From a virus (taxonomy: Duplodnaviria; Heunggongvirae; Uroviricota; Caudoviricetes), in the IMG/VR virus record IMGVR_UViG_2529292909_000010: a stretch of DNA of 15,937 bases; one strand, written 5' to 3'. The notes beneath the pieces are model-generated. The model did no database searches and was not told where the DNA came from. It saw nothing but the letters and a program-made list of their open reading frames with translations. Each line of letters begins with the position of its first letter. Position 1 is the stretch's first letter. The position numbers and the translations under genes are program-made. This document shows positions 1-15,937 of the stretch, piece after piece.

Positions 1-1119
1 TTAAATAACCAACTTAACCCATTCCTGACCTCGGGTATCGTTATAGCGATCGGTGGTAGCCTGGACTTTATGTCCCAGTAATGTTTTTGTATCGACACCC
101 TGTGCGCGGTACAACCGTTCTGACAGGGAGCGTTGTTCATGAAATGTTGGCGGTGTTTTTCCTGCTGGTGGAATTATTCCAGCCAGATCTCGCGCTTTGG
201 CGAAGTAATCGCTCAGGTTGTCTTTACTCATCGGTTTTGGTTGTTTCTGGTGCCTACTATGGATTAGATATGGACTTAATATTCTGTCTCGGCACCCATC
301 AATAACTTCTTTTAACGTTATCCCAATGGCATCACAGCGTAGTGTAAGCGGTAACGCCAGGCGCATTCCGGTTTTTCCTTGGGTGATATGCAAGTGTTCG
401 TTCCACACATCTGAAAAACGCATGTGGCAAATGTCATCACGGCGCTGACCAGTAACAATCGCAAGAAGCATTGCGTTACGGATAAAGTGTTTTTCAGGCG
501 TTGCGTTGTAAATTTTTTGCCAGTCTTCCAGGGTGAGTCTGGCTCTGGTTACTTTAGGGATCGGTTTACGGGTAGCCTCCGGAGGATTCCATCCAGGAGG
601 AACTTCTCCTGCATGCTGTGCTTCTTTATAAATATCAACCCATAATCCACGATTTACTCTCGCTGTGCTGACCATGTCTTTATCCAGCCAATCATCCAGT
701 ATTAATGCAAAGTCTCTTACTTCCAGTTCTTTCAATGGATGGTTTCCCAGACGGGAAACCAGGTATGCAGCCATTCGGGCTTTTTCTTTGTGAGTTGTAG
801 CTGCAATATCTCCATTTTTCAGTCGCGTGTCCTGTATTTTCAGATATCGATCAACCCATGCCTTTAATCTGATACCCCGACGTTTTGTTGCTGACGGACT
901 TTCATCAATTTTGCGCATGAAATATTCAGCTTCTGCTGCAGCTATTCGCTGATTGGCTGTGGAAGCGATTTTTTCTGCCTTACCTTTGTCTGTTCCGAGT
1001 CCGTGAAATTTTCCAGTCACAGGATTTTTATACTGGTAGTAAACTCTGCCAGTTCTGCGATCAAACTTTTCGTAAAGACCGGCTACGTCAGTGCTGTTTT
1101 TTCGTGGCCTCGGTGACAT
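1..1119 (-). CDS. int: Phage integrase, lambda-type tyrosine recombinase (372 aa)
   Basis: Full ORF with stop at 1-3; AAGGAG Shine-Dalgarno about 10 nt upstream of the ATG at 1119; C-terminal LGHKVQATTDRY resembles the His...Tyr catalytic region of tyrosine recombinases; sits next to an excisionase-like gene at the prophage edge. Confidence 0.9.
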   Translation of the reverse strand: MSPRPRKNSTDVAGLYEKFDRRTGRVYYQYKNPVTGKFHGLGTDKGKAEKIASTANQRIAAAEAEYFMRKIDESPSATKRRGIRLKAWVDRYLKIQDTRLKNGDIAATTHKEKARMAAYLVSRLGNHPLKELEVRDFALILDDWLDKDMVSTARVNRGLWVDIYKEAQHAGEVPPGWNPPEATRKPIPKVTRARLTLEDWQKIYNATPEKHFIRNAMLLAIVTGQRRDDICHMRFSDVWNEHLHITQGKTGMRLALPLTLRCDAIGITLKEVIDGCRDRILSPYLIHSRHQKQPKPMSKDNLSDYFAKARDLAGIIPPAGKTPPTFHEQRSLSERLYRAQGVDTKTLLGHKVQATTDRYNDTRGQEWVKLVI

Positions 1120-1357
1120 GAGTTAAAATCTCCTTCAGTGCATCATCATCGCCAGTATGAATTTCCGGCGCAATTCCCGTTTCACCAGGCCCAACAAATA
1201 CTGCTCGGCGATCTATCAGCCAACGCCCACGAATTTTTTGTGGCCTTGGAACGATGTATCCTAGTTTTCCGTATTTCACCAGGGTAGTGTTTGTTATTGG
1301 GAGACTGAACCGTTTTGGTTTCCACTCGTCGAGCGTTATCAGGTACTGTTCGCTCAT
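1088..1357 (-). CDS. xis: Excisionase (Xis-like), about 89 aa from the ATG at 1357
   Basis: Small ORF immediately upstream of int, overlapping its start by about 30 bp; remembered lambda Xis-like pattern (YLITLDEW...VPRPQKIRGRW); GGAG Shine-Dalgarno before the ATG at 1357; the ORF track begins at a GTG at 1366. Confidence 0.7.
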   Translation of the reverse strand: MSEQYLITLDEWKPKRFSLPITNTTLVKYGKLGYIVPRPQKIRGRWLIDRRAVFVGPGETGIAPEIHTGDDDALKEILTHVTEATKKQH

Positions 1358-1418
1358 GGCTATCACTCCGGAACGCGCCAGTTGCAGAATATCAACGACA
1401 ACTGGCGACGGTTGAACA

Positions 1419-3338
1419 TTAAAAATCAGCCTGACTCGGGATCAGTTTTTGCCAGATAACTGAAACGTATTTTGCCTGGTAACGGGCGTCATCAAGTGCA
1501 TTATGGCGCTCACCTTCGAATGGAATAGCCGTTCTGGCATCGAAGTCTATGGCTTTCCCCAGCTCAACGATTGTGCGTACATCGCGATCGTTGTAGTAAC
1601 GCCACGGGCAGGGGATCCCCTGCCGTTCGTATGAACGGCGCAAAATCGTGTTGTCGAAGTTGGCTCCATTTCCCCAGACCTGAACAAAAAATTCACCGGA
1701 GTTTTCGTCGATAAATTCCCGCAATTGTAACAGTGCATCATCTAACGGGATTTCATCGGTCATAATGGCAGATTGCGCTTCGCGTGATTGCTTAAGCCAC
1801 CATTTAATGGTGTCCCGATCAATGACTCCGCCAGCAGTTTCCAGATCGATAGTCTTACTAAATTCCGGTCCCATATCTCCGGTTTGCGGATCGAAAAATA
1901 TTGCACCTATTGAGATGATCGGGGCATCAGGATTTTTTCCCATGGTTTCAAGGTCGATCATTAGATGGTCACACGTCCTGCTGGTGGATGTGATTTCTTG
2001 ATGACCGTTCACCTTAATTGAGTGATCTGCCGTCTCGCCAGTTTCATTATCGCTATCGTGATGCTGATTGCCGCCAGTGTTCTCTTTGTGTGGATGTTCA
2101 GCGCCTTCCATTTCCTCCGGATCATCTTCCTGAACTTCAACCTGATACTCTTCATCGAATGTTTCCTGGTATGTTGCGTCGCCCATCACCGCGCCACAAT
2201 CAGGGCAGTTGCCGCCGCCGGTCTGACCGCAGGCGGTGCAGATCTTTTCCGGTTCCTGTTGCACTACTGGTTCAGGTTGTTTCGTTTCTGGCTCGTTTTG
2301 TTGCGTACTTGGGCTGTTTTGTTCCGCTTTCTGGTCGTTCTGTTCCGTTTCTTGCTGGTTCTGGTTCACAGAATCGCGGGTCTGGATCCCATTAACCCAT
2401 TTCGGATCATTCGGGTCGCTAATCCCTTCAACAAATTCACCACGTGATACTGCAAGCAGTTCATCGGCGTCAGGCTGGCTGATATTGGCTGCCTGCATAA
2501 TTTTGTTTACTTCGTCAGCGGTAACTTTTACTGACCCTGGTTGTGCGGTCGTGTCAGATGCACCAGTATTTTGTTGTGAACCTGAGTATGTACCGTTTTT
2601 GCGGGCGAAATATTCTTCTTTCGTGATTTCAGTAGCCCCAGCAGACAGCGCCTTATCCAGACCAGAAAGTTTGTTTGCGCGACCGTATTTTTCGCCATCC
2701 TTGTCGGTGAAGAGGAAGTAGAACGGCCCCTCACGTTCTACAGATGGTTCGACTTCCACTTTGCATTCGGTTTTTTCGTTGTCTGGAATTGCCGTTTCCA
2801 CTGCATCAGTTTCTGGTACTGGCGACGAGAGAGTATCAGTTGCGCTCTGATTTGTTCCTTCATCTTCAAACACGCCCTTTGTAGTCAGGTATTCAGTAAT
2901 GTATTTGTTCAGTGCCACAGGGTCTTTGTGAATGTCGATCGGACGTTCACGGACAAGGCCAAAAATAGTCTGGCGGTCGTAGCGAAGGGCATCAGGCTGT
3001 TTGCGCATTGATGCCGAGATACGCTTCCAGTCTTCGCGGTCGTTGTCGATAACTTCATTTTTTGCCCAGCGATGGATGCTGCCGTCAATGTTTCCGGCAT
3101 CCACATCACCAGGCCAGAGAGCGTAGGCCAGTTCGTCATCTAGTGTTTTCCATGTCTGCTTGTATTCGCGATGAATGGCAGCAATGACCGGGTTGATTTT
3201 TCCTGTTGAATTTTCAGTGTGCTGTTGATTGGCTCTGGCGCGGGCGAGATCAACAACAGACGTGTATTTTCCGGCTTCCTTGCGTTCACCTTCGCGACGT
3301 TTTTCCAGATGCGCATCTCTGCCTGAATTTCGGGCCAT
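1419..3338 (-). CDS. Phage exonuclease with C-terminal DEDDh 3'-5' exonuclease domain (639-aa ORF; true N-terminus uncertain)
   Basis: C-terminal about 180 aa carry DEDDh-like motifs (MIDLETMG; WGNGANFD; HNALDDARYQAKY). The centre is an acidic/Gln-rich low-complexity linker containing a CxxC...CxxC zinc-ribbon-like element (CTACGQTGGGNCPDCG). No clear Shine-Dalgarno before the ATG at 3338, and the first about 200 bp overlap the upstream ORF out of frame. Confidence 0.7.
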   Translation of the reverse strand: MARNSGRDAHLEKRREGERKEAGKYTSVVDLARARANQQHTENSTGKINPVIAAIHREYKQTWKTLDDELAYALWPGDVDAGNIDGSIHRWAKNEVIDNDREDWKRISASMRKQPDALRYDRQTIFGLVRERPIDIHKDPVALNKYITEYLTTKGVFEDEGTNQSATDTLSSPVPETDAVETAIPDNEKTECKVEVEPSVEREGPFYFLFTDKDGEKYGRANKLSGLDKALSAGATEITKEEYFARKNGTYSGSQQNTGASDTTAQPGSVKVTADEVNKIMQAANISQPDADELLAVSRGEFVEGISDPNDPKWVNGIQTRDSVNQNQQETEQNDQKAEQNSPSTQQNEPETKQPEPVVQQEPEKICTACGQTGGGNCPDCGAVMGDATYQETFDEEYQVEVQEDDPEEMEGAEHPHKENTGGNQHHDSDNETGETADHSIKVNGHQEITSTSRTCDHLMIDLETMGKNPDAPIISIGAIFFDPQTGDMGPEFSKTIDLETAGGVIDRDTIKWWLKQSREAQSAIMTDEIPLDDALLQLREFIDENSGEFFVQVWGNGANFDNTILRRSYERQGIPCPWRYYNDRDVRTIVELGKAIDFDARTAIPFEGERHNALDDARYQAKYVSVIWQKLIPSQADF

Positions 3339-3889
3339 TTGGCACCAGGCTTACATTTATGCTTAACCCACCCGATGGCATGCAGCTTAAGCTCCGGATA
3401 CATAGCGTTAACTTCTGGCATTTTCATCAACGCTTCAACGATATGGCCGTCGAATGTTGCCATGTCTTCCTGCAACAATTCCTGTGCGCTAATCACCATA
3501 TCAACAGTGATGTTTTCACATGTGTCGAACTTAACCATGAGAGCGTTCTGTACTTCAGGGGCCAGCTTGTCAAAAGTGACGTTCATCAGATCGGATTCAG
3601 TCTCAACCGGGACAAAAGAAGCAGAATCCTCATCCCAGCGGTTTTCCTGCATATATTCAGCATCCCATGAATCGAGGGCAGGGCGGGGTATGCCAGGTTT
3701 ATCCTCGCAGATAATAAATTTATAAGCGCAGTCCTGAGCAGCCGGATAATGTTCCAGGAACTGCCAGTGAAATTTTGCTCGAGCACGGCGTTCGTCGCCA
3801 GCTTCAATGGCTGTGGCTACAGCCACAGCGCCTTCTTCCCTTGTTGCCAGTTCGTCAGGAATGGCGGCGCAAATAAAGACTTTACTCAT
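3140..3889 (-). CDS. Hypothetical early-left operon protein (249-aa ORF; C-terminal about 50 aa doubtful, possibly the N-terminal part of a frameshifted fusion with the exonuclease)
   Basis: Long ORF with a GAGG Shine-Dalgarno before the ATG at 3889; protein-like composition for roughly the first 195 residues; the 3' end overlaps the 639-aa ORF by 199 bp in another frame, with an A5/T5 homopolymer at 3300-3304 in the overlap. Confidence 0.55.
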   Translation of the reverse strand: MSKVFICAAIPDELATREEGAVAVATAIEAGDERRARAKFHWQFLEHYPAAQDCAYKFIICEDKPGIPRPALDSWDAEYMQENRWDEDSASFVPVETESDLMNVTFDKLAPEVQNALMVKFDTCENITVDMVISAQELLQEDMATFDGHIVEALMKMPEVNAMYPELKLHAIGWVKHKCKPGAKWPEIQAEMRIWKNVAKVNARKPENTRLLLISPAPEPINSTLKIQQEKSTRSLLPFIANTSRHGKH

Positions 3890-3982
3890 TTTGTTTTAAC
3901 CTCATGACAGATTTAAGGATGAACAAATCCCTGCCATTGCTGGCATATAAGAATGAAACCGGATATTTATTACGGAACTGTT

Positions 3983-4174
3983 TTAAAGACCTGCCGGGAT
4001 TTCGATATTATCCTGGTGAATAACTTTATCGACCGGGTAACAGTTACCGGGAATTTTCTGTTCGGTTGCTGCAGTCATACACTCCTGCATTGTCCTGTGA
4101 ACACTGACTGCAATATCAACTGGCTCTCCGGAAACAAGAAAAACTGTCAGAACAAGTGCAAATGCTGTATTCAT
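3983..4174 (-). CDS. Small hypothetical protein with N-terminal signal-peptide-like segment (about 63 aa from the internal Met)
   Basis: From MNTAFALVLTVFLVSGEPVD: hydrophobic N-terminal stretch followed by a polar region; its ATG (4174-4172) overlaps the stop of the upstream ORF in an ATGA arrangement, suggesting translational coupling. Confidence 0.35.
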   Translation of the reverse strand: MNTAFALVLTVFLVSGEPVDIAVSVHRTMQECMTAATEQKIPGNCYPVDKVIHQDNIEIPAGL

Positions 4175-4359
4175 TGCCAGCATCCTTTTTGTATCGGACG
4201 TAAACGGGCCAACATTGAAAGAATGCATATTTTATTTAATAGCTCCCGTTCGTGTTTTCTCTTGTTAATGGCATCTTCAGTAAATACAGGGTTACTGATA
4301 GTGACACCAATTTCAAAACAACCTTCAGACGTATTAACGTTTGGTAATAACGTTTTCAT
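4171..4359 (-). CDS. Small hypothetical early protein (about 62 aa from the internal Met)
   Basis: ORF in the leftward early operon; TGAGGG Shine-Dalgarno about 9 nt upstream of the ATG at 4359; stop overlaps the start of the next small ORF. Confidence 0.35.
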   Translation of the reverse strand: MKTLLPNVNTSEGCFEIGVTISNPVFTEDAINKRKHERELLNKICILSMLARLRPIQKGCWQ

Positions 4360-4848
4360 TATCGCGCCCTCAACAATGAGTTTTGTGATGCGGTGCCTGG
4401 TGCCTCCAGGTGACGTTAACCAGTTAACAATTAACGCCGGATACAGAGAATCCAACCATAACACTGTTTTTGGTTTTAACTGTTCCGCGTGCGCTTAGCC
4501 GCATTCACCGCATCACAAAATTCACTTTAAAAAGGGCGGCAGAGCAGTCACGGAGTAAAACTGATACCGCCAAACGTCACCAGAAAATTGATAACAGAGG
4601 GCGTTGCAGCGGGGTTGTCACTTAAGCGTATGGTCAACCTGACAACCCGGTGTCCTCAACGGGGGAAGGAATAACCCCGCCATACTTACCGCCGCGCCAT
4701 TTCGCGGATTGCCACAACCAGAAGCGCACGGTCGAAGAAATTTAACGACAAGACTTATATGCAAAGGGATCTCGCCGTGCGCTTTCGTGTTATGCCCTGA
4801 CTTTTCAGGGTAAATTAACCTGTGGAAACCTGTTTTTACTGGCGCTAA

Positions 4849-5088
4849 TCAGTTAGCGTTTCTGGCTAACCAGCGATGCGCGGCAGCTTCGGTTTTAAAC
4901 GTTTTACTTTTGGTATACGTCATCGCGGTAAACGTGCCGTCCTGATTGGGAAACACGCCACATACCAGAGATTCGTTGTTGCCAAGCTCGATAGTATCCA
5001 TGCTGACCTCATTTCCCCTTAACGCTGGGGTAGCGGAACTAAAAACCTGCTGCGCTGTTATACAAAGTGTTCCCGCCGTCATGTTCAT
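4849..5088 (-). CDS. Small hypothetical protein, first gene of the leftward early transcript (possibly YdaF-like; start may be the internal ATG at 5001, giving about 50 aa)
   Basis: ORF directly downstream of the PL-like promoter; GAGG Shine-Dalgarno before the internal ATG at 5001; the YdaF resemblance is an unverified recollection. Confidence 0.45.
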   Translation of the reverse strand: MNMTAGTLCITAQQVFSSATPALRGNEVSMDTIELGNNESLVCGVFPNQDGTFTAMTYTKSKTFKTEAAAHRWLARNAN

Positions 5089-5182
5089 ACGCCTCGGGCT
5101 GGCTACTTAATCCCTGACCACTGCCGGGTAACTCTAGGTATTGCCCTGTATTGTGTGGGACGGGATGGGTTGGTATGGGAAA

Positions 5183-5250
5183 ACTATAGGAAATGCCTAA
5201 TTGCTTGTCAATAGGCTATGCCTAATGATTTGGGTGCGACCTAATAGGTG
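5183..5250 (-). promoter_or_regulatory. Leftward early promoter (PL-like) with OL-like operator repeats
   Basis: Minus strand reads TTGACA (5211-5206), 17-nt spacer, TATAGT (5188-5183). Overlapping near-palindromes carry the TAGGC/GCCTAA half-site (aTAGGCtatGCCTAA 5211-5225; GCCTAA 5195-5200; aCCTAAtAGGt 5239-5249). Confidence 0.6.
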
Positions 5251-5319
5251 ATGGTTTGTGGGAGAGGTAGTAGGAGTTAACTAACGGGAACTAGGAATTT
5301 CCCGTCGGACCATATAAGT

Positions 5320-5796
5320 TTAAGTTCCTGTCTTGGTGATGTTCTGGCTTTTCCGTTTTGATTCTTGATTTTTCAGATAGTTAGCTACCTTCATTTCCAT
5401 TGCGGCAATGTAGGCGCGAACGTCATGATCAACCCAACTAGGCTCCGTAGCATTTCCAGATAAGAGGAAAGCCACAATTGCTCTTTTTTCATCAGAGGCG
5501 GCTTGATAAAGGCTGTTTATGTCTAAAAGTTCACTTTTTGTATCTGAAGTGGATGGGGTTGGTATGGGGTATTCGTTAAGCCCCCAATGCTCTGGACCAA
5601 CCACATCAGAAAAGAAACGCCATAGTTCTGGAAGTTTGTCTTTACTTATCGAACCTTTCTTAATCCAGTCATGGATTGATGGTGGTTGGACTTTGAAATG
5701 ACGTGCGATTTCCGCCTTTGATTTGACGGCTCCTGATGCAATTTTTTTGTTGATGGCCTGCTCTATCGCTCGGCCTAAGTCTTTACCACTAAGCAT
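5320..5796 (-). CDS. Prophage repressor, RacR/CI-like HTH protein (158 aa)
   Basis: Divergent from the cro-like gene and sited between two operator clusters; HTH-like segment (AEIARHFKVQPPSIHDWIKKG); AGGAGA Shine-Dalgarno 8 nt upstream; same length and position as RacR in Rac-type immunity regions (recollection). Confidence 0.75.
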   Translation of the reverse strand: MLSGKDLGRAIEQAINKKIASGAVKSKAEIARHFKVQPPSIHDWIKKGSISKDKLPELWRFFSDVVGPEHWGLNEYPIPTPSTSDTKSELLDINSLYQAASDEKRAIVAFLLSGNATEPSWVDHDVRAYIAAMEMKVANYLKNQESKRKSQNITKTGT

Positions 5797-5824
5797 TGCT
5801 TAATAGTCTCCTATGCGCATCGCG

Positions 5825-5893
5825 TTAGGCAATCCCTACTCTCGAAGCGTTAGGCATAGCCTATTGACAATCGCATTAGGCTAAGCCTAATAT
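5825..5893 (+). promoter_or_regulatory. Rightward early promoter (PR-like) with three OR-like operators
   Basis: TTGACA (5864-5869), 18-nt spacer, TAATAT (5888-5893). Operators at about 25-bp spacing: TTAGGCaatcCCTAc (5825-5839), TTAGGCataGCCTAt (5850-5864, touching the -35) and the near-perfect palindrome TTAGGCtaaGCCTAA (5876-5890, overlapping the -10). Confidence 0.6.
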
Positions 5894-5920
5894 TATTGTG
5901 TGTTTTTTGGAGTTCATTCG

Positions 5921-6244
5921 ATGAAAAAAGATAACTATTCATTCAAACGAGCTTGTGCTGTTGTCGGTGGGCAATCAGCAATGGCTAGGCTTTTAGGTGT
6001 ATCTCCTCCAAGCGTAAATCAATGGATCAAAGGTGTACGTCAGTTGCCTGCTGAGAGATGTCCTGCGATTGAACGAGCAACAAAAGGTGGTGTCCTGTGT
6101 GAAGAACTTCGTCCTGATGTTGATTGGACATACTTACGACGCTCGTCATGTTATTCGCAGAATATGTCGATGAAGCAACCAAATGACGAAAACGATCATA
6201 CCCGAAGCATCAAGAGGCAAATGATTCATGAAAATCAAACATGA
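5921..6244 (+). CDS. Cro-like HTH regulator (YdaS-like, about 107 aa)
   Basis: First gene after the PR-like promoter; GGAG Shine-Dalgarno before the ATG at 5921; HTH-like segment (QSAMARLLGVSPPSVNQWIKG) resembling Rac YdaS (recollection). Confidence 0.7.
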   Translation: MKKDNYSFKRACAVVGGQSAMARLLGVSPPSVNQWIKGVRQLPAERCPAIERATKGGVLCEELRPDVDWTYLRRSSCYSQNMSMKQPNDENDHTRSIKRQMIHENQT

Positions 6245-6653
6245 GCACATCCGCATGGCGATGAATGCCTGGGCATATCCTGATGGTGAGAAAGTTCCAG
6301 CAGCTGGAATAACCCAGGCTTATTTTGAGTTGGGTATGACGTTCCCAGAACTGTATGACGACAGCCATCCGGAAGCCCTGGCTCGCAATACCCAGAAAAT
6401 TTTCCGCTGGGTAGAGAAAGACACCCCTGATGCAGTTGAAAAAATTCAGGCGTTGTTACCAGCGATCGAAAAGGCAATGCCACCTTTGCTGGTGGCCAGA
6501 ATGCGCAGCCACAGTTCAGCTTATTTTCGGGAGCTGGTGGAGACGCGGGAACGACTGGTGAGAGACGCTGATGATTTTGTCGCAGTGGCGATCGCTGGTT
6601 TCAACCAGATGAATCGTGGTGGCCCTGCAGGAAATATTGTGGCTGTGCATTGA
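6228..6653 (+). CDS. YdaT-like protein (141 aa), second gene of the rightward early operon
   Basis: Start overlaps the cro-like stop by 17 nt with an AAGAGG Shine-Dalgarno; size and position match YdaT of Rac-type prophages (recollection). Confidence 0.6.
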   Translation: MKIKHEHIRMAMNAWAYPDGEKVPAAGITQAYFELGMTFPELYDDSHPEALARNTQKIFRWVEKDTPDAVEKIQALLPAIEKAMPPLLVARMRSHSSAYFRELVETRERLVRDADDFVAVAIAGFNQMNRGGPAGNIVAVH

Positions 6654-6724
6654 CTCGCAATATTCATACCGGATCACTTCCGGCAATTTGTGAGTAAAAA
6701 GATTCGGTATCAAAAGAGGTGAGT

Positions 6725-7795
6725 ATGGCTAACGCCTGGCTCAGATTATGGCATGACATGCCAAATGACCCTAAGTGGCGAACAATTGCCAGGGTGTCAG
6801 GGCAGCCAATTGCAACAGTGATGGCAGTGTATATCCACCTCCTGGTGAGCGCGTCACGAAATGTCACGCGAGGTCACATTGATGTCACGACAGAAGATTT
6901 GGCAAGTGCGCTCGACGTGACAGAAGAGGTAATTGATTCAATTTTGCAGACGATGCAGGGGCGGGTACTTGATGGTGATTTAATCACTGGATGGGAAAAA
7001 CGCCAGGTGCTTAAAGAGGACAACGGCAATATTTCGCAAACCGCAAAATCTCCTGCAGAGCGCAAGAGGGCGCAGCGAGAGAGGGAAAGAAAGCGGGAAC
7101 AAAATGGCGATTGTCACGGCGCGTCACGAAATGTCACGCACATGTCACGACGAGTCACGACAGATAAAGATACAGATAAAGATACAGATCAAGAAGATCA
7201 AAACACTATGGTCCATGGCGTAAAAAACGCCACGAACCAGGCAGGGGATGTTCAGACCGTCAATCTTGGTCAGCCAGCAGGCACGACACCGGAAGCCGAT
7301 TCAGCGTATGCGCTGAAAGCCGATTCGGGCGCTGTGCAGCAGGTGATGACCGCAAGGCCGGAGCAATCACACCAACTGCAGCAGCCCGAAGCCGATTCTG
7401 CCATTCAGCGGGAAGCCGATCGGGTAGTCCCGGAAAACACCGGGCAGTCTGTGGGACGAGTGGATTATCCGGATGTGTTCGAACAGGTCTGGCGGGAGTA
7501 CCCGTTGCGTGCTGGGGCAAACCCGAAGAAATCCGCTTTCAGTGCCTGGAAGGCCAGATTACGCGAGGGGGTGCCACCAGAGGCCATGCTGGATGGCGTG
7601 AGGCGTTACGCAAGATACTTGGCGGCTACCGGGAAAACGGGAACGGAATTTGTTCAGCGAGCGACGACGTTTTTTGGACCGGACCGGAATTTTGAAAACC
7701 CCTGGTTGCTCCCGGTAAGCGGCACGAACAACCAGCGTTGTGTTAATCATATTTCTGAACCGGACACCGAAATTCCGCCGGGATTCAGAGGGTAA
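6725..7795 (+). CDS. Replication initiator (YdaU/O-like) with embedded iteron origin
   Basis: ATG at 6725 with AAGAGGTGAG Shine-Dalgarno (ORF track starts at a GTG at 6719); N-terminal region resembles YdaU-type phage replication proteins (recollection); two GTCACG iteron clusters and an AT-rich repeat lie inside the gene, as in lambda O. Confidence 0.65.
   Translation: MANAWLRLWHDMPNDPKWRTIARVSGQPIATVMAVYIHLLVSASRNVTRGHIDVTTEDLASALDVTEEVIDSILQTMQGRVLDGDLITGWEKRQVLKEDNGNISQTAKSPAERKRAQRERERKREQNGDCHGASRNVTHMSRRVTTDKDTDKDTDQEDQNTMVHGVKNATNQAGDVQTVNLGQPAGTTPEADSAYALKADSGAVQQVMTARPEQSHQLQQPEADSAIQREADRVVPENTGQSVGRVDYPDVFEQVWREYPLRAGANPKKSAFSAWKARLREGVPPEAMLDGVRRYARYLAATGKTGTEFVQRATTFFGPDRNFENPWLLPVSGTNNQRCVNHISEPDTEIPPGFRG
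6851..6890. repeat. Iteron cluster 1: four GTCAC(G/A) repeats at about 10-bp phasing
   Basis: GTCACG at 6853, 6863 and 6884, GTCACA at 6873; the 19-bp string gcgtcacgaaatgtcacgc is identical to 7121-7139. Confidence 0.6.
7111..7210. repeat. Iteron cluster 2 (five GTCACG at 10-11-bp phasing) plus adjacent AT-rich tandem repeat; putative replication origin
   Basis: GTCACG at 7113, 7123, 7133, 7144 and 7154, followed by cagataaagatacagataaagatacagatcaagaagatc (12-bp unit repeated twice, AT-rich). Confidence 0.6.
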
Positions 7796-9115: not shown

Positions 9116-9694
9116 ATGAGAGACATTGATGTAAGAAAGGCTGTGCATGCCAAGATTCTGAGAGATCATCATAAAGATCCTGACACCCTAATCATTGATG
9201 AGTTTACGATGAATCTAGGGGCTAGCAGAGCTGATATAGCAGTGATCAATGGGCTTATACATGGTTATGAGTTGAAGAGCAAGAGTGATAACTTGCTCAG
9301 ATTACCAGCGCAGGTGCAACATTACTCATCAGTGATGGATAAAGTAACTTTGGTTGTCTCTGATTGCCATCTTTATGATGCTTTAAGCATAGTTCCATCA
9401 TGGTGGGGGATAAAGCAAGTTACGCAAGGTGCACGGCAAGGTATCCATTTAAAAACAATTCGAACTAGCAAGTTGAATCCACAAGTGGACAAACTTTCCT
9501 TAACAATGCTTCTTTGGAAAGATGAATTGCTTTCCCTATTAAGTGATGTAGGGGAGCTACAGAATTTGAAAAATAAACCTAAACGCGTCTTATGGTCAAA
9601 ACTCGCCAATAGTATGGATGTTGGCGAGCTTCGTGAAGCTGTTCGAGTTAAACTTAAAGCCCGTAAAGAGTGGCGAGTTGCTCAACAACCTTAG
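9116..9694 (+). CDS. Putative PD-(D/E)xK-fold nuclease-like protein (192 aa), accessory cargo gene
   Basis: AT-rich ORF; motif arrangement E(IIDEF)...D(RADIAV)...E-x-K(GYELKS) fits a restriction-endonuclease-like active site; may belong to the family usually annotated 'sce7726 family' (unverified recollection). Confidence 0.6.
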   Translation: MRDIDVRKAVHAKILRDHHKDPDTLIIDEFTMNLGASRADIAVINGLIHGYELKSKSDNLLRLPAQVQHYSSVMDKVTLVVSDCHLYDALSIVPSWWGIKQVTQGARQGIHLKTIRTSKLNPQVDKLSLTMLLWKDELLSLLSDVGELQNLKNKPKRVLWSKLANSMDVGELREAVRVKLKARKEWRVAQQP

Positions 9695-10751
9695 TTATGT
9701 GATGGTTTTGCCCAATCCTACGCCATACCTCTGGGCTACCAAATTTATAGTTACCAGAGGGATTGGCTTTGTAGGCTTGATACTCGTTTGCATAATATTC
9801 TATGTCTCTATCTCCCGCACAGAATGTAGGCCCTGAATATTCTCGATGAGCAAGAATATCCTCACTATGTTTACCATATTGTTCATAACCAAAGCGATTA
9901 GCTACTCTTCCTCGAAATACCCAAAAGTCATTATCTCCAGAGTATCTGACGCTGGCAGATACGCTAGGGAATCGCGTCGAAAGCCTATTAAAGTCGGGGT
10001 GCTGTACTCCATAATCACTATAAATCACATTTCTGGCAAGTTCTTTTCTATTCATTAAACTCTGCCATAAAATCCACTCGATTCGAGGTTGAGAATATAG
10101 ACCAACAGAAATATCACTGAGATCTGTAGGAAATGAACCCCCAGAAAGAATCACTTTTCTGTATTCATTGAGGTGCGCCAGATTGTTTATCAATCCCATT
10201 GCCAAAGTATATAGTTCGCCGGAATTAATTTTATCCTCGGTTAACTCATCTCTTAAGTCAATAATTATATCAATATTTGATAAAGGAATTCCCAGATGAT
10301 TAATGTAATGCGTTATTAATTGTGGGTTAACCAGATCTAACGTGGTTAATCTCAAGCATATTTCATTCTGCATTAATTCATCAATCGCTCTTTTATAGTT
10401 AGATGGGCGAGTTGGTGAACTGACAGGAATAACTCTTATCCCCATATCTCTAACTTGATTAACCGCATTTATTATAGGGTAATGATCTTCAGGAGAAATA
10501 AAATGCTCTTCAATTAATAATCCATCAATATAAACACCTTGCATATCTGAGCAAGATTTTGAGACTTTCTTTCCGAACTCTATAAGAGTCTCGTTATAAC
10601 TCTTTAAGGCAATACCTGAATCAGGGTCAATTGGCACTGGTTCAATTTCGAGTAATGGCAAAATTTTTGATTTCTTTTCAATGGATAGCTGCGATAAAGC
10701 TGATAACTCAGAACGTTTCGCTTTCAGAATAGGAATATATGAAATTGTCAT
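9654..10751 (-). CDS. Large uncharacterised partner protein (365 aa), possibly P4 'beta'-family-like
   Basis: AT-rich ORF convergent with the 192-aa gene, 3' ends overlapping by 41 bp; no motif I can assign; the family assignment is an unverified recollection. Confidence 0.6.
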   Translation of the reverse strand: MTISYIPILKAKRSELSALSQLSIEKKSKILPLLEIEPVPIDPDSGIALKSYNETLIEFGKKVSKSCSDMQGVYIDGLLIEEHFISPEDHYPIINAVNQVRDMGIRVIPVSSPTRPSNYKRAIDELMQNEICLRLTTLDLVNPQLITHYINHLGIPLSNIDIIIDLRDELTEDKINSGELYTLAMGLINNLAHLNEYRKVILSGGSFPTDLSDISVGLYSQPRIEWILWQSLMNRKELARNVIYSDYGVQHPDFNRLSTRFPSVSASVRYSGDNDFWVFRGRVANRFGYEQYGKHSEDILAHREYSGPTFCAGDRDIEYYANEYQAYKANPSGNYKFGSPEVWRRIGQNHHITKVVEQLATLYGL

Positions 10752-11486: not shown

Positions 11487-12826
11487 CATAAGCGCTAACT
11501 TAAGGGTTGTGGTATTACGCCTGATATGATTTAACGTGCCGATGAATTACTCTCACGATAACTGGTCAGCAATTCTGGCCCATATTGGTAAGCCCGAAGA
11601 ACTGGATACTTCGGCACGTAATGCCGGGGCTCTAACCCGCCGCCGCGAAATTCGTGATGCTGCAACTCTGCTACGTCTGGGGCTGGCTTACGGCCCCGGG
11701 GGAGTGTCATTACGTGAAGTCACTGCATGGGCGTCAGCTCCATGACGTTGCAACATTATCTGACGTGGCTCTCCTGAAGCGGCTGCGGAATGCCGCCGAC
11801 TGGTTTGGCATACTTGCCGCACAAACACTTGCTGTACGCGCCGCAGTTACGGGTTGTACAAGCGGAAAGAGATTGCGTCTTGTCGATGGAACAGCAATCA
11901 GTGCGCCCGGGGGCGGCAGCGCTGAATGGCGACTACATATGGGATATGATCCTCATACCTGTCAGTTCACTGATTTTGAGCTAACCGACAGCAGAGACGC
12001 TGAACGGCTGGACCGATTTGCGCAAACGGCAGACGAGATACGCATTGCTGACCGGGGATTCGGTTCGCGTCCCGAATGTATCCGCTCACTTGCTTTTGGA
12101 GAAGCTGATTATATCGTCCGGGTTCACTGGCGAGGATTGCGCTGGTTAACTGCAGAAGGAATGCGCTTTGACATGATGGGTTTTCTGCGCGGGCTGGATT
12201 GCGGTAAGAACGGTGAAACCACTGTAATGATAGGCAATTCAGGTAATAAAAAAGCCGGAGCTCCCTTTCCGGCACGTCTCATTGCCGTATCACTTCCTCC
12301 CGAAAAAGCATTAATCAGTAAAACCCGACTGCTCAGCGAGAATCGTCGAAAAGGACGAGTAGTTCAGGCGGAAACGCTGGAAGCAGCGGGCCATGTGCTA
12401 TTGCTAACATCATTACCGGAAGATGAATATTCAGCAGAGCAAGTGGCTGATTGTTACCGTCTGCGATGGCAAATTGAACTGGCTTTTAAGCGGCTCAAAA
12501 GTTTGCTGCACCTGGATGCTTTGCGTGCAAAGGAACCTGAACTCGCGAAAGCGTGGATATTTGCTAATCTACTCGCCGCATTTTTAATTGACGACATAAT
12601 CCAGCCATCGCTGGATTTCCCCCCCAGAAGTGCCGGATCCGAAAAGAAGAACTAACTCGTTGTGGAGAATAACAAAAATGGTCATCTGGAGCTTACAGGT
12701 GGCCATTCGTGGGACAGTATCCCTGACAGCCTACAAAACGCAATTGAAGAACGCGAGGCATCGTCTTAACGAGGCACCGAGGCGTCGCATTCTTCAGATG
12801 GTTCAACCCTTAAGTTAGCGCTTATG
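11487..12826 (+). mobile_element. IS186-like insertion sequence (IS4 family), about 1340 bp
   Basis: Terminal inverted repeats cataagcgctaacttaagggttg (11487-11509) and its reverse complement (12804-12826); internal transposase matches the IS186 InsL sequence as I remember it; flanked by a 10-bp direct repeat in GC-rich target DNA. Confidence 0.8.
11542..12655 (+). pseudogene. IS186 transposase, apparently frameshifted (N-terminal about 67 aa in one frame, remaining about 330 aa in another)
   Basis: ORF 11536..11745 encodes the canonical N-terminus (MNYSHDNWSAILAHIGKPEEL...) then terminates; ORF 11654..12655 continues the protein (...QLHDVATLSDVALLKRL...) in a different frame; the junction is near gggcgtcagctcc (about 11731-11743), where one extra base relative to the remembered sequence would account for the shift. 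Confidence 0.5.
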
Positions 12827-14322: not shown

Positions 14323-14697
14323 ATGCTCATAGATTTGGTTTTACCTTACCCGCCGACGGTGAACACTTACTGGCGACGCCGTGGCAGCACATATTTTATC
14401 TCGGAGGAGGGAAAGCGTTATCGCCGGGCTGTGGCGCTTATTGTTCGCCAGCAGCGGCTGAAATTAAGCCTGTCCGGAAGGCTGGCGATAAAGGTGATTG
14501 CAGAGCCACCGGATAAGCGTCGTCGCGACCTGGACAATATCCTGAAAGCACCGCTGGATGCGCTGACGCACGCGGGGTTGTTAATGGACGATGAGCAGTT
14601 TGATGAAATCAATATTGTACGTGGAAAGCCAGTATCTGGTGGACGTCTGGGGGTGAAGATTTACCCCATAATGCTTGAAGGGCAGGTCAAAAAATGA
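14323..14697 (+). CDS. rusA: RusA-family Holliday junction resolvase (124 aa)
   Basis: Conserved-looking PDKRRRDLDNILKAPLDALT segment and overall length typical of RusA; AAGAGGTGA Shine-Dalgarno; stop overlaps the start of the antiterminator gene (ATGA). Confidence 0.85.
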   Translation: MLIDLVLPYPPTVNTYWRRRGSTYFISEEGKRYRRAVALIVRQQRLKLSLSGRLAIKVIAEPPDKRRRDLDNILKAPLDALTHAGLLMDDEQFDEINIVRGKPVSGGRLGVKIYPIMLEGQVKK

Positions 14698-15497
14698 AAC
14701 TGGAAGATTTACCGAAATACTACTCCCCAAAATCCCCTGGCCTGACCGATGCATCGGCCTCAACGTCAAAAGATGCGCTGAGTATCACTGATGTGATGGC
14801 CGCGCAGGGCATGACACAGAATCGGGCTGAGATGGGGTTTTCTGCGTTCCTTGGGAAAATGGGCATTAGTATGAATGACAGAGAGCGGGCAACAGAATTG
14901 CTGACAGAATATGCACTCAGTCGGTGTGATCGCGTGGCGGCGTTAAGAAAACTCCCGGCAGAAATAAAACCGGCAGTAATGCGTATTATGGCTTCGTATG
15001 CGTTTGAAGATTATGCCCGTAGCGCGGCGAGCAAAAAACAGTGCCCCTGCTGTCACGGAAAAAAATTTATTGAAAGCGAGGTTTTTACAAACAAGATCCA
15101 GTATCCGGATGGTAAGCCGCCAGTGTGGGCAAAGTGCACAAAAGGCGTGTATCCGTCTTACTGGGAGGAATGGAAAAAAGTCAGGGAGGTGGTAAAAGTT
15201 GCCTGTCCGGAGTGTGGAGGGAAGGGAGAGGTATCCACTGCCTGTAAAGATTGTCGTGGGCGCGGTGTTGCCATTCATCGTGAAGAGTCGGAAAAACAGG
15301 GTGTGCCGGTTTTCAGAAACTGTCAGCGTTGTGGTGGGCGTGGCTATGAAAGATTACCTTCAACGGAGGCATTTAATGCCATATGTAATGTAACCGATGC
15401 CATATCTCTTGATACATGGAAAAAACAGTTAAACGTTTTTACGATACGCTGGTGGTGCAGTTTGATATTGAAGAAGCATGGGCAGAACAACAACTGA
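14694..15497 (+). CDS. Late-gene antiterminator, Q-like (QuuQ-type, 267 aa)
   Basis: Several CxxC pairs (CPCCHGKK; CPECGGKG; CKDCRGRG; CQRCGGRG); position immediately after rusA and before a promoter/terminator-like intergenic region; resembles Qin QuuQ (recollection). Confidence 0.65.
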   Translation: MKLEDLPKYYSPKSPGLTDASASTSKDALSITDVMAAQGMTQNRAEMGFSAFLGKMGISMNDRERATELLTEYALSRCDRVAALRKLPAEIKPAVMRIMASYAFEDYARSAASKKQCPCCHGKKFIESEVFTNKIQYPDGKPPVWAKCTKGVYPSYWEEWKKVREVVKVACPECGGKGEVSTACKDCRGRGVAIHREESEKQGVPVFRNCQRCGGRGYERLPSTEAFNAICNVTDAISLDTWKKQLNVFTIRWWCSLILKKHGQNNN

Positions 15498-15519
15498 AAA
15501 AGGTGACCAGATAGCTTTG

Positions 15520-15618
15520 TTGATTTTTCCCGAATCTGTGGTAAATTTGCCCTAACGATGGGCGTTTTATGCCTGACGTTAGAAGATTTTTACACCCGTC
15601 GCCAGGCGGGTTTTTTTA
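15520..15618 (+). promoter_or_regulatory. Putative late promoter (PR'-like) with downstream intrinsic terminator (tR'-like)
   Basis: TTGATT (15520-15525), 16-nt spacer, TAAATT (15542-15547); downstream hairpin cccgtc-gcca-ggcggg (15595-15610) followed by a T7 run (15611-15617). Confidence 0.3.
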
Positions 15619-15739
15619 TGACTGAAATCACGCCAGTACAGTAAACGCGCTGGTGGCGGTGAATACCGGTCTTTCAGCTTGCTGGCTTTTTTGACAAGAG
15701 TTATTGGTGTGTCACGTTAACCGGAAAAGGGAAAAAGAC

Positions 15740-15937
15740 ATGCTGAAACAGCAGGATATGACCGAAACCGCCAGAGTGGTGTTTAATGAATTAAGTGCCA
15801 CCGCACCGGCGACAGTCGGGGAGATTGCACAGAATACTTACCTCTCACGCGAACGCTGCCAGTTAATACTGACCCAGCTTGTTATGGCGGGTCTGGCAGA
15901 CTATCAGTGCGGTTGTTACAGACGCCTTCAGTCCTGA
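15740..15937 (+). CDS. Hypothetical small protein (about 65 aa from the ATG at 15740)
   Basis: ORF ends at the window edge with TGA; the ORF-track start at 15704 is a TTG; the ATG at 15740 is preceded by a purine-rich stretch. Confidence 0.35.
   Translation: MLKQQDMTETARVVFNELSATAPATVGEIAQNTYLSRERCQLILTQLVMAGLADYQCGCYRRLQS

Follow-up and report, generated by a model that had tools for sequence, protein, structure and literature searches.

Two overlapping reading frames of a prophage exonuclease gene in the draft genome of Escherichia coli DEC6D are probably produced by a homopolymer miscall

Results

Two long reading frames overlap at a run of five A residues

The window analyzed here, that is the whole stretch of 15,937 nucleotides, represents bases 3349-19285 of the draft contig AIFY01000028.1 (19,297 bp; GCA_000249655.2) of Escherichia coli DEC6D, to which it is identical over the 13,889 bases compared. 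In the gene neighbourhood between xis and the ydfD, DUF1482 and kil genes, two long open reading frames are found (Table 1). According to the ORF list, the 249-aa and the 639-aa ORF are in different frames and overlap from position 3140 to 3338, i.e. by the 199 bp which the original prediction had given for them. On the gene strand the junction reads atctggaaaaacgtc, and the five A residues at 3304..3300 correspond to T5 on the plus strand; the A5/T5 run pointed out earlier could be seen again on this strand. The gene-strand codons at the site are gag atg cgc atc tgg aaa aac gtc. About 15 billion proteins contain a single exact match to the 249-aa product, EHV74581.1 ('exonuclease family protein [Escherichia coli DEC6D]'). 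In the GenBank gene call on AIFY01000028.1 the downstream piece starts from a GTG at 3104 and comprises 561 aa.

Residues 1-196 of the 249-aa ORF are the authentic N-terminus of the protein. The translations diverge from those of the homologues after ...EMRIWK, and residues 197-249 form an out-of-frame tail, terminated by the TAG at 3142-3140. Conversely, the 639-aa ORF is open over 3300-3338 by accident. The 199-bp overlap is not a product of chance, it is the direct outcome of a one-base frameshift inside a long ORF, because the old frame continues for 53 codons before it stops at 3140, and the new one happens to be open back to 3338. The ORF tool by convention takes as start the first in-frame start codon after a stop, and the ATG at 3338 was chosen in this way. 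The absence of a Shine-Dalgarno sequence at this ATG had been described correctly, but it is uninformative, since the ATG is located inside the true CDS and was set by the convention of the tool.

Table 1. Positions of the features discussed in the text, in coordinates of the window
Feature	Position	Strand	Remark
Upstream ORF	3140..3889	(-)	249 aa; ORF list
Downstream ORF	1419..3338	(-)	639 aa; ORF list
Whole frameshifted gene	1419..3889	(-)	2471 nt as compared to 2472 nt of the intact gene; alignment
A5 homopolymer, one A missing	3300..3304	(-)	A6 in 7/7 homologues fetched
Remainder of the true gene	1419..3299	(-)	in the -1 frame with respect to the N-terminal part; codes for intact-protein residues 198-823
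Rv2179c-like 3'-5' exonuclease domain (PF16473)	1452..1967	(-)	residues 458-629 of the 639-aa ORF
Second contraction in the window, antiterminator Q gene	15420..15425	(+)	A6 as compared to A7 in ST866 and 2013C-4974

Homologues contain a single gene with one additional A

A megablast search with positions 1300-4000 against phage records found 30 records, three of which were fetched. In mEp460_ev081, which is 96.5% identical to the window, one CDS of 2472 bp lies between the excisionase gene and a small hypothetical gene, and in phage Evi one CDS of 2481 bp is present at the exonuclease position. The PPompW phages carry an annotated single pseudogene at this place ('putative exonuclease ... frameshifted by deletion'); their run consists of six A residues, and the annotated lesion is a separate 4-base deletion at the window equivalent of 2493-2496. 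Prophage genes thus also decay by real frameshifts, here in the very same gene, which has to be kept in mind as a counterpoint when a lesion of this kind is ascribed to a miscall. The four-way alignment of the window with mEp460_ev081, Evi and PPompW directly shows that the window is short of exactly one A and that this A is missing from the run, which reads ctgg-aaaaaa-cgt in the homologues and ctgg-aaaaa-cgt in the window.

The same was observed for complete E. coli chromosomes. ST866, 25-07338, CAU16175 and 2013C-4974 each contain one 2472-bp gene annotated as '3'-5' exonuclease' or 'exonuclease', and all four have the extra base, the site in CAU16175 lying within the single gap of its alignment and having no separate listing. 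Between the window and the intact homologues the DNA identity amounts to 96-97%, with a single 1-base gap over the whole gene. Seven relatives were fetched, and the six of them without another lesion all encode the protein in one ORF (2472-2481 bp, 823-826 aa). Whether the homologues are single ORFs had been put forward as the decisive check, and for these six relatives the answer is yes; homologues organized as two overlapping genes with the same boundaries, the arrangement named beforehand as contrary to the prediction, were looked for and not encountered. When the A is restored, the protein reads ...EMRIWKKRREGERKEAGKYTSVV...; it runs through residues 1-196 of the 249-aa ORF and continues in the 639-aa ORF from residue 14. 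The resulting length of 823 aa agrees with the roughly 820 aa that had been anticipated for a fusion of the two ORFs by a one-base indel at 3300-3304.

The gene encodes a protein with YdfE-like and Rv2179c-like exonuclease domains

The exonuclease domain of the 639-aa ORF (PF16473) was detected with an E value of 1.8e-67 and 226.9 bits, as compared to a Pfam gathering threshold of 27; we take this Rv2179c-like domain to be of the DEDD type. YdfE_N and YdfE_C domains are located in the N-terminal 250 residues according to the precomputed Pfam annotation. The intact 96.5%-identical homologue belongs to PHROG 2082 'exonuclease', whose profile it covers from position 1 to 822 of 823 (1855 bits), and the window gene aligns with this homologue from end to end with one 1-base gap. 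A gene of PHROG 2082 is expected to consist of a single uninterrupted frame. In the window copy (2471 nt; 249 + 639 aa) this frame is interrupted; it differs from the PHROG 2082 gene by the loss of one A of the A6 at 3300-3304, so that two ORFs result. VUF53467.1 (mEp460_ev081) and WP_194874625.1 (ST866), with 96-97% identity at the DNA level, are encoded at the same position and have the same domain order, i.e. YdfE_N/YdfE_C followed by the Rv2179c-like domain. PHROG 2082-type genes are often annotated as 'exodeoxyribonuclease encoded by cryptic prophage CP-933P'.

Many records call the protein 'exonuclease VIII' because of its likeness to recE. This likeness to RecE, exodeoxyribonuclease VIII of the Rac prophage, concerns the central region of the protein. 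Residues 245-626 match only profile positions 270-603 of the 877 positions of the NCBIfam RecE equivalog NF007259, which is the non-catalytic middle, and the score of 274.6 bits falls short of the curated cut-off of 1269. At the DNA level, about 400 bp are 86% identical to recE of phage Rac-SA53, which indicates a mosaic ancestry of the gene. RecE possesses a C-terminal nuclease domain of its own, whereas the protein of the window has the DEDD-type Rv2179c-like 3'-5' exonuclease domain instead. The label 'exonuclease VIII' is unjustified and a misnomer for this protein.

The A5 allele is absent from the complete genomes searched

The frequency of both alleles was determined with a 47-mer for A5 and a 48-mer for A6, each having 21 bases on either side of the run, which forces any 28-base megablast seed across it. 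None of the 5,426 complete E. coli genomes contained the A5 47-mer. The A6 48-mer was present in 3,853 of the same 5,426 genomes, with 6,057 occurrences in total, and at least 3,528 records match it with 100% identity. The gene is very common, and a single genome holds as many as 6 copies. Among the GTDB species-representative genomes, the exact 28-base A5 pattern did not occur either. The two-frame layout is found in no complete genome searched and is not a conserved design. We also considered a phase-variable locus. Phase-variable homopolymer tracts typically comprise 8 bases or more. The tract here has a length of only 5-6 bases, and with identical flanks A6 is represented by those at least 3,528 complete-genome records and A5 by none, which led us to discard this possibility.

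The contig contains further contractions of A/T runs

Additional indels of the same kind break potD and the antiterminator Q gene in this assembly. The potD gene, a conserved flanking chromosomal gene on the same contig, shows an isolated single-base gap relative to ST866 at contig positions of about 1790-1794 (GAGCTG-AAAAA-CTGATG as compared to GAGCTG-AAAAAA-CTGATG), and in DEC6D it is called as two products of 201 + 146 aa, as compared to 348 aa in ST866. The potD A5 allele occurs in 0 of the 5,426 complete genomes, the A6 allele in 4,495. In the Q gene (14694-15497), the shortening of A7 to A6 replaces the last 30 residues by an out-of-frame tail. This Q-gene A6 allele is present in only 2 of the 5,426 complete genomes. 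As it does occur in two complete genomes, such differences need not all be errors.

A homopolymer census was carried out in which all runs of the contig with clean flanks were compared with six relatives. None of the 47 runs having five bases in the relatives differs in DEC6D, as compared to two of the 27 runs of six bases and one of the four runs of seven bases. Thus, 3 of the 31 runs of at least 6 bases are shortened, and all three changes are one-base A/T contractions. Other isolated indels on the contig that are absent from all relatives were found neither by alignment nor in the census. This length-dependent and one-directional pattern of contraction is typical of homopolymer undercalling and unlike natural mutation plus selection; the conserved potD gene is struck as readily as the prophage genes.

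Three further candidates were considered on the contig. The G4/G5 run at 4661, which is the one further difference in run length, might have been a homopolymer expansion; G5 is found in 3 of the 6 relatives too, which makes it a natural polymorphism. The short call for the sce7726-family gene was regarded as a possible lesion, but the ORF is intact and the protein identical to that of ST866, so that this is a gene-calling omission only. The IS421 insertion at about 11488-12825 has the same length in its best complete-genome matches, with 99.7% identity, and is uninformative on errors.

Truncated and contracted copies in other assemblies

The 90% cluster around the 249-aa product comprises 84 members, all of them truncated, and a look-up by exact protein necessarily picks out copies with this lesion. 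Three other drafts of the DEC project (DEC3E, DEC9E and DEC1D) carry truncated versions of the exonuclease gene which, to judge from the protein sequences only, appear to be caused by single-A contractions. In DEC3E the frame would change at the same A6 run (...RIWKNVAKV...), in DEC9E and DEC1D at an A4 run located 30 nt further downstream (...RKETGNTRLLL... as compared to ...RKETGKYTSVV... in the intact protein). The DEC genomes were reportedly sequenced by 454 pyrosequencing.

At the DNA level, A5 at the same run was also found in AP027446.1, JBRXBX01, JBRXBT01 and the Logan run ERR1739590, which the A5 query had missed because these assemblies are outside the RefSeq complete-genome set. They show A6->A5 or T6->T5 changes at gene positions 586, 828, 1115, 1953 and 2200. 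The subset of contracted runs varies between assemblies of the same allele, with up to five other runs being affected, which points to noise and not to inheritance. The recurrent A5 was also considered as an inherited natural allele; this was rejected, as the variable subsets of contracted runs mark these assemblies as error-prone.

Discussion

A homopolymer-length miscall best explains the split gene

The split exonuclease gene is most likely an assembly artefact, i.e. a homopolymer miscall in the draft which is not present in the DNA of the strain. The DEC6D draft would have recorded an A6 run as A5, and from this one-base error in homopolymer length the 249-aa ORF, the 639-aa ORF and their 199-bp overlap would follow mechanically. 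In the real strain the gene would be intact and would be translated as one protein of 823 aa without any frameshifting. It would then be an ordinary prophage gene of the lambdoid/Rac type, its product having YdfE-like N-terminal domains, a RecE-like non-catalytic middle and a C-terminal Rv2179c-like exonuclease domain. That an error and not a mutation caused the difference is most probably the case in view of the pattern of errors in the same contig and in the sister assemblies. The indel is located within a homopolymer, and its allele is without occurrence in the complete and GTDB genomes searched. With homopolymer errors in draft or long-read-only assemblies it has in common that one base is lost from an A/T run of at least 6 bases and that the resulting allele is absent from the complete genomes searched, and further that additional contractions, including the one in potD, are present on one contig and that variable subsets of A6->A5 changes appear elsewhere. 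The original prediction had left three causes open, namely a sequencing error, a pseudogenising frameshift and programmed frameshifting; of these, we now rank the sequencing error first and the pseudogenising deletion second, and programmed frameshifting is effectively excluded.

If the miscall is accepted, contig AIFY01000028.1 would contain at least three homopolymer-length errors within its 19 kb, including the one in potD, and the value of the observation would be one of quality control only. The 'overlapping ORFs', 'split genes' and short 'exonuclease family protein' entries of DEC6D and its sister assemblies should then not be taken as biology.

A real deletion in DEC6D is unlikely

A strain-private deletion of 1 bp, arisen by replication slippage in the A6 run and pseudogenising the exonuclease of DEC6D, is the most serious competitor, but we regard it as unlikely. 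Such a deletion would leave 196 N-terminal residues followed by a nonsense tail of 53 aa, with the exonuclease domain being lost or weakly expressed from the GTG at 3104. Slippage has natural hotspots in homopolymer runs, and inactivation is frequent among the accessory genes of prophages, as seen in the PPompW phages, where the 4-base deletion at 2493-2496 is a different annotated frameshift in the same gene; moreover, the deposited sequence does read A5. However, an A5 allele that is missing from 5,426 complete genomes with 6,057 copies of A6 argues against a real deletion, as does the finding that the same contig carries a change of the same kind in potD, again with an allele that none of the 5,426 genomes contains, and another one in Q. 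Three independent gene-breaking contractions of A runs in 19 kb, together with no other private isolated indel, would constitute an implausibly high and one-sided mutational load, and the gene appears to carry lesions of this type in the sister DEC drafts as well. Should the deletion nevertheless be real, DEC6D would harbor a further prophage gene in decay, a frequent and unremarkable situation.

Recoding at the A run is highly improbable

We also examined whether the A5 sequence might be recoded, either by a programmed -1 frameshift on G AAA AAC or by transcriptional slippage on the A run, which would give a short and a fused product. This is highly improbable, and programmed frameshifting is effectively excluded. 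The shift that restores the protein is indeed -1, and the near-slippery sequence TGG AAA AAC would allow the A-site AAC to re-pair on AAA. Programmed -1 sites of E. coli are known from dnaX (A AAA AAG) and from the IS1/IS3 transposases, and the window resembles these in having an A-rich run at the junction of overlapping frames and in needing a -1 shift. In contrast to them, its heptamer is imperfect, since G AAA AAC breaks the X XXY YYZ rule at the first position, a stimulatory structure is absent and homologues do not share the frameshifted layout. For the 113-nt stretch starting at the site (3312-3200 (-)), the MFE is -24.3 kcal/mol as compared to a shuffle mean of -24.7 (z = 0.12), and 110 of 200 shuffles fold at least as well, i.e. 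no stimulatory RNA structure was found downstream of the site. Relatives with the same flanks have A6 and are in frame in 3,853 genomes, and A5 is found in none. A run of five A residues is also too short for appreciable slippage of RNA polymerase. Finally, the contractions in potD and Q are equivalent to the one in the exonuclease gene, yet potD has A6 and one ORF in 4,495 genomes and Q is intact in ST866. In neighbouring genomes, the transposases of IS1 and IS3 are annotated with 'programmed frameshift'.

A combination, in which A5 is real in DEC6D and low-level accidental -1 frameshifting at G AAA AAC leads to a truncated YdfE-like protein plus a little full-length exonuclease, has an equally slight chance of being correct. 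If it were true, recoding at the DEC6D site would be accidental and of new origin, not evolved, and it would have no evolutionary meaning.

Two separate genes are refuted by the comparison with homologues

Two genuine, separately translated overlapping genes, one for a YdfE-like protein and one for the exonuclease, are the least probable explanation of all, and within the limits of annotation they are refuted by the comparison with homologues: PHROG 5943 and PHROG 20376 do cover residues 1-257 and 295-822 separately, but both map onto the contiguous 823 positions of PHROG 2082, the six fetched relatives free of another lesion have one ORF, and with one A inserted the overlap translates in a single frame as the protein of the intact homologues. 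PHROG 5943, 20376 and 14078 as well as the truncated 'exonuclease family protein' cluster would rather derive at least partly from broken copies of the 823-aa gene.

Homopolymer-run contractions on the same contig and in other assemblies

On contig AIFY01000028.1, a contraction from A6 to A5 splits potD, which lies beside the window, into open reading frames of 201 and 146 aa. The A5 allele of potD was present in none of the 5,426 complete E. coli genomes. Furthermore, the A-run of the antiterminator Q gene comprises six residues in the window as compared to seven in the close relatives ST866 and 2013C-4974, and an out-of-frame tail replaces the last 30 residues of the gene product. This A6 allele was found in only two of the 5,426 complete genomes (MBT-5 and DEC9B).

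In four other assemblies that share the A5 call in the exonuclease gene (AP027446.1, JBRXBX010000001.1, ERR1739590_36 and JBRXBT010000001.1), many A6/T6 runs of this gene are one base short, the subset of contracted runs varies from one assembly to another, and the integrase genes are broken up as well. Taken together, the number of contracted runs, their differing subsets and the fragmented integrase genes suggest that these contractions are uncorrected homopolymer errors. If so, the resulting truncated products now populate protein databases.

Features in and beside the window
Feature	Position	Strand	Remarks
Exonuclease gene	1419-3889	-	
G-run	4661-4665		Between dicB and ydfC; G5 in window and three relatives, G4 in three others
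'sce7726 family protein' gene	9116-9694	+	Prophage early region
'beta family protein' gene (PF14350)	9654-10751	-	Prophage early region
IS4-like IS421 (IS186-type) element, 1.3 kb	about 11488-12825		Adjoins hokD; extra relative to ST866 and others
Antiterminator Q gene	14694-15497	+	Frameshift close to 3' end, A-run 15420-15425
potD	L004 (stretch of AIFY01000028.1) 14847-15892; contig about 1346-2391		Outside window, same contig; conserved chromosomal gene

Annotation of the exonuclease gene and further features

In many public records the exonuclease gene is labelled 'exodeoxyribonuclease VIII'. Its match to the RecE equivalog reaches only 274.6 bits, far under the cut-off of 1269, and the product instead contains a DEDD-type Rv2179c-like catalytic domain. 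PHROGs 5943, 20376 and 14078 correspond to pieces of this one 823-aa protein.

The sce7726 and beta family genes form a convergent, overlapping pair, which may constitute a cargo module of accessory or defence type. In the window, the reading frame of the sce7726 gene is unbroken; the contig's own gene calls give only a 42-aa fragment.

The length difference of the G-run is a natural polymorphism; an assembly error is ruled out by the occurrence of G5 in three of the relatives. Several complete genomes, e.g. PSS-08-1 and APEC-O117H42, also carry the IS421 insertion context, with an identity of 99.7%.
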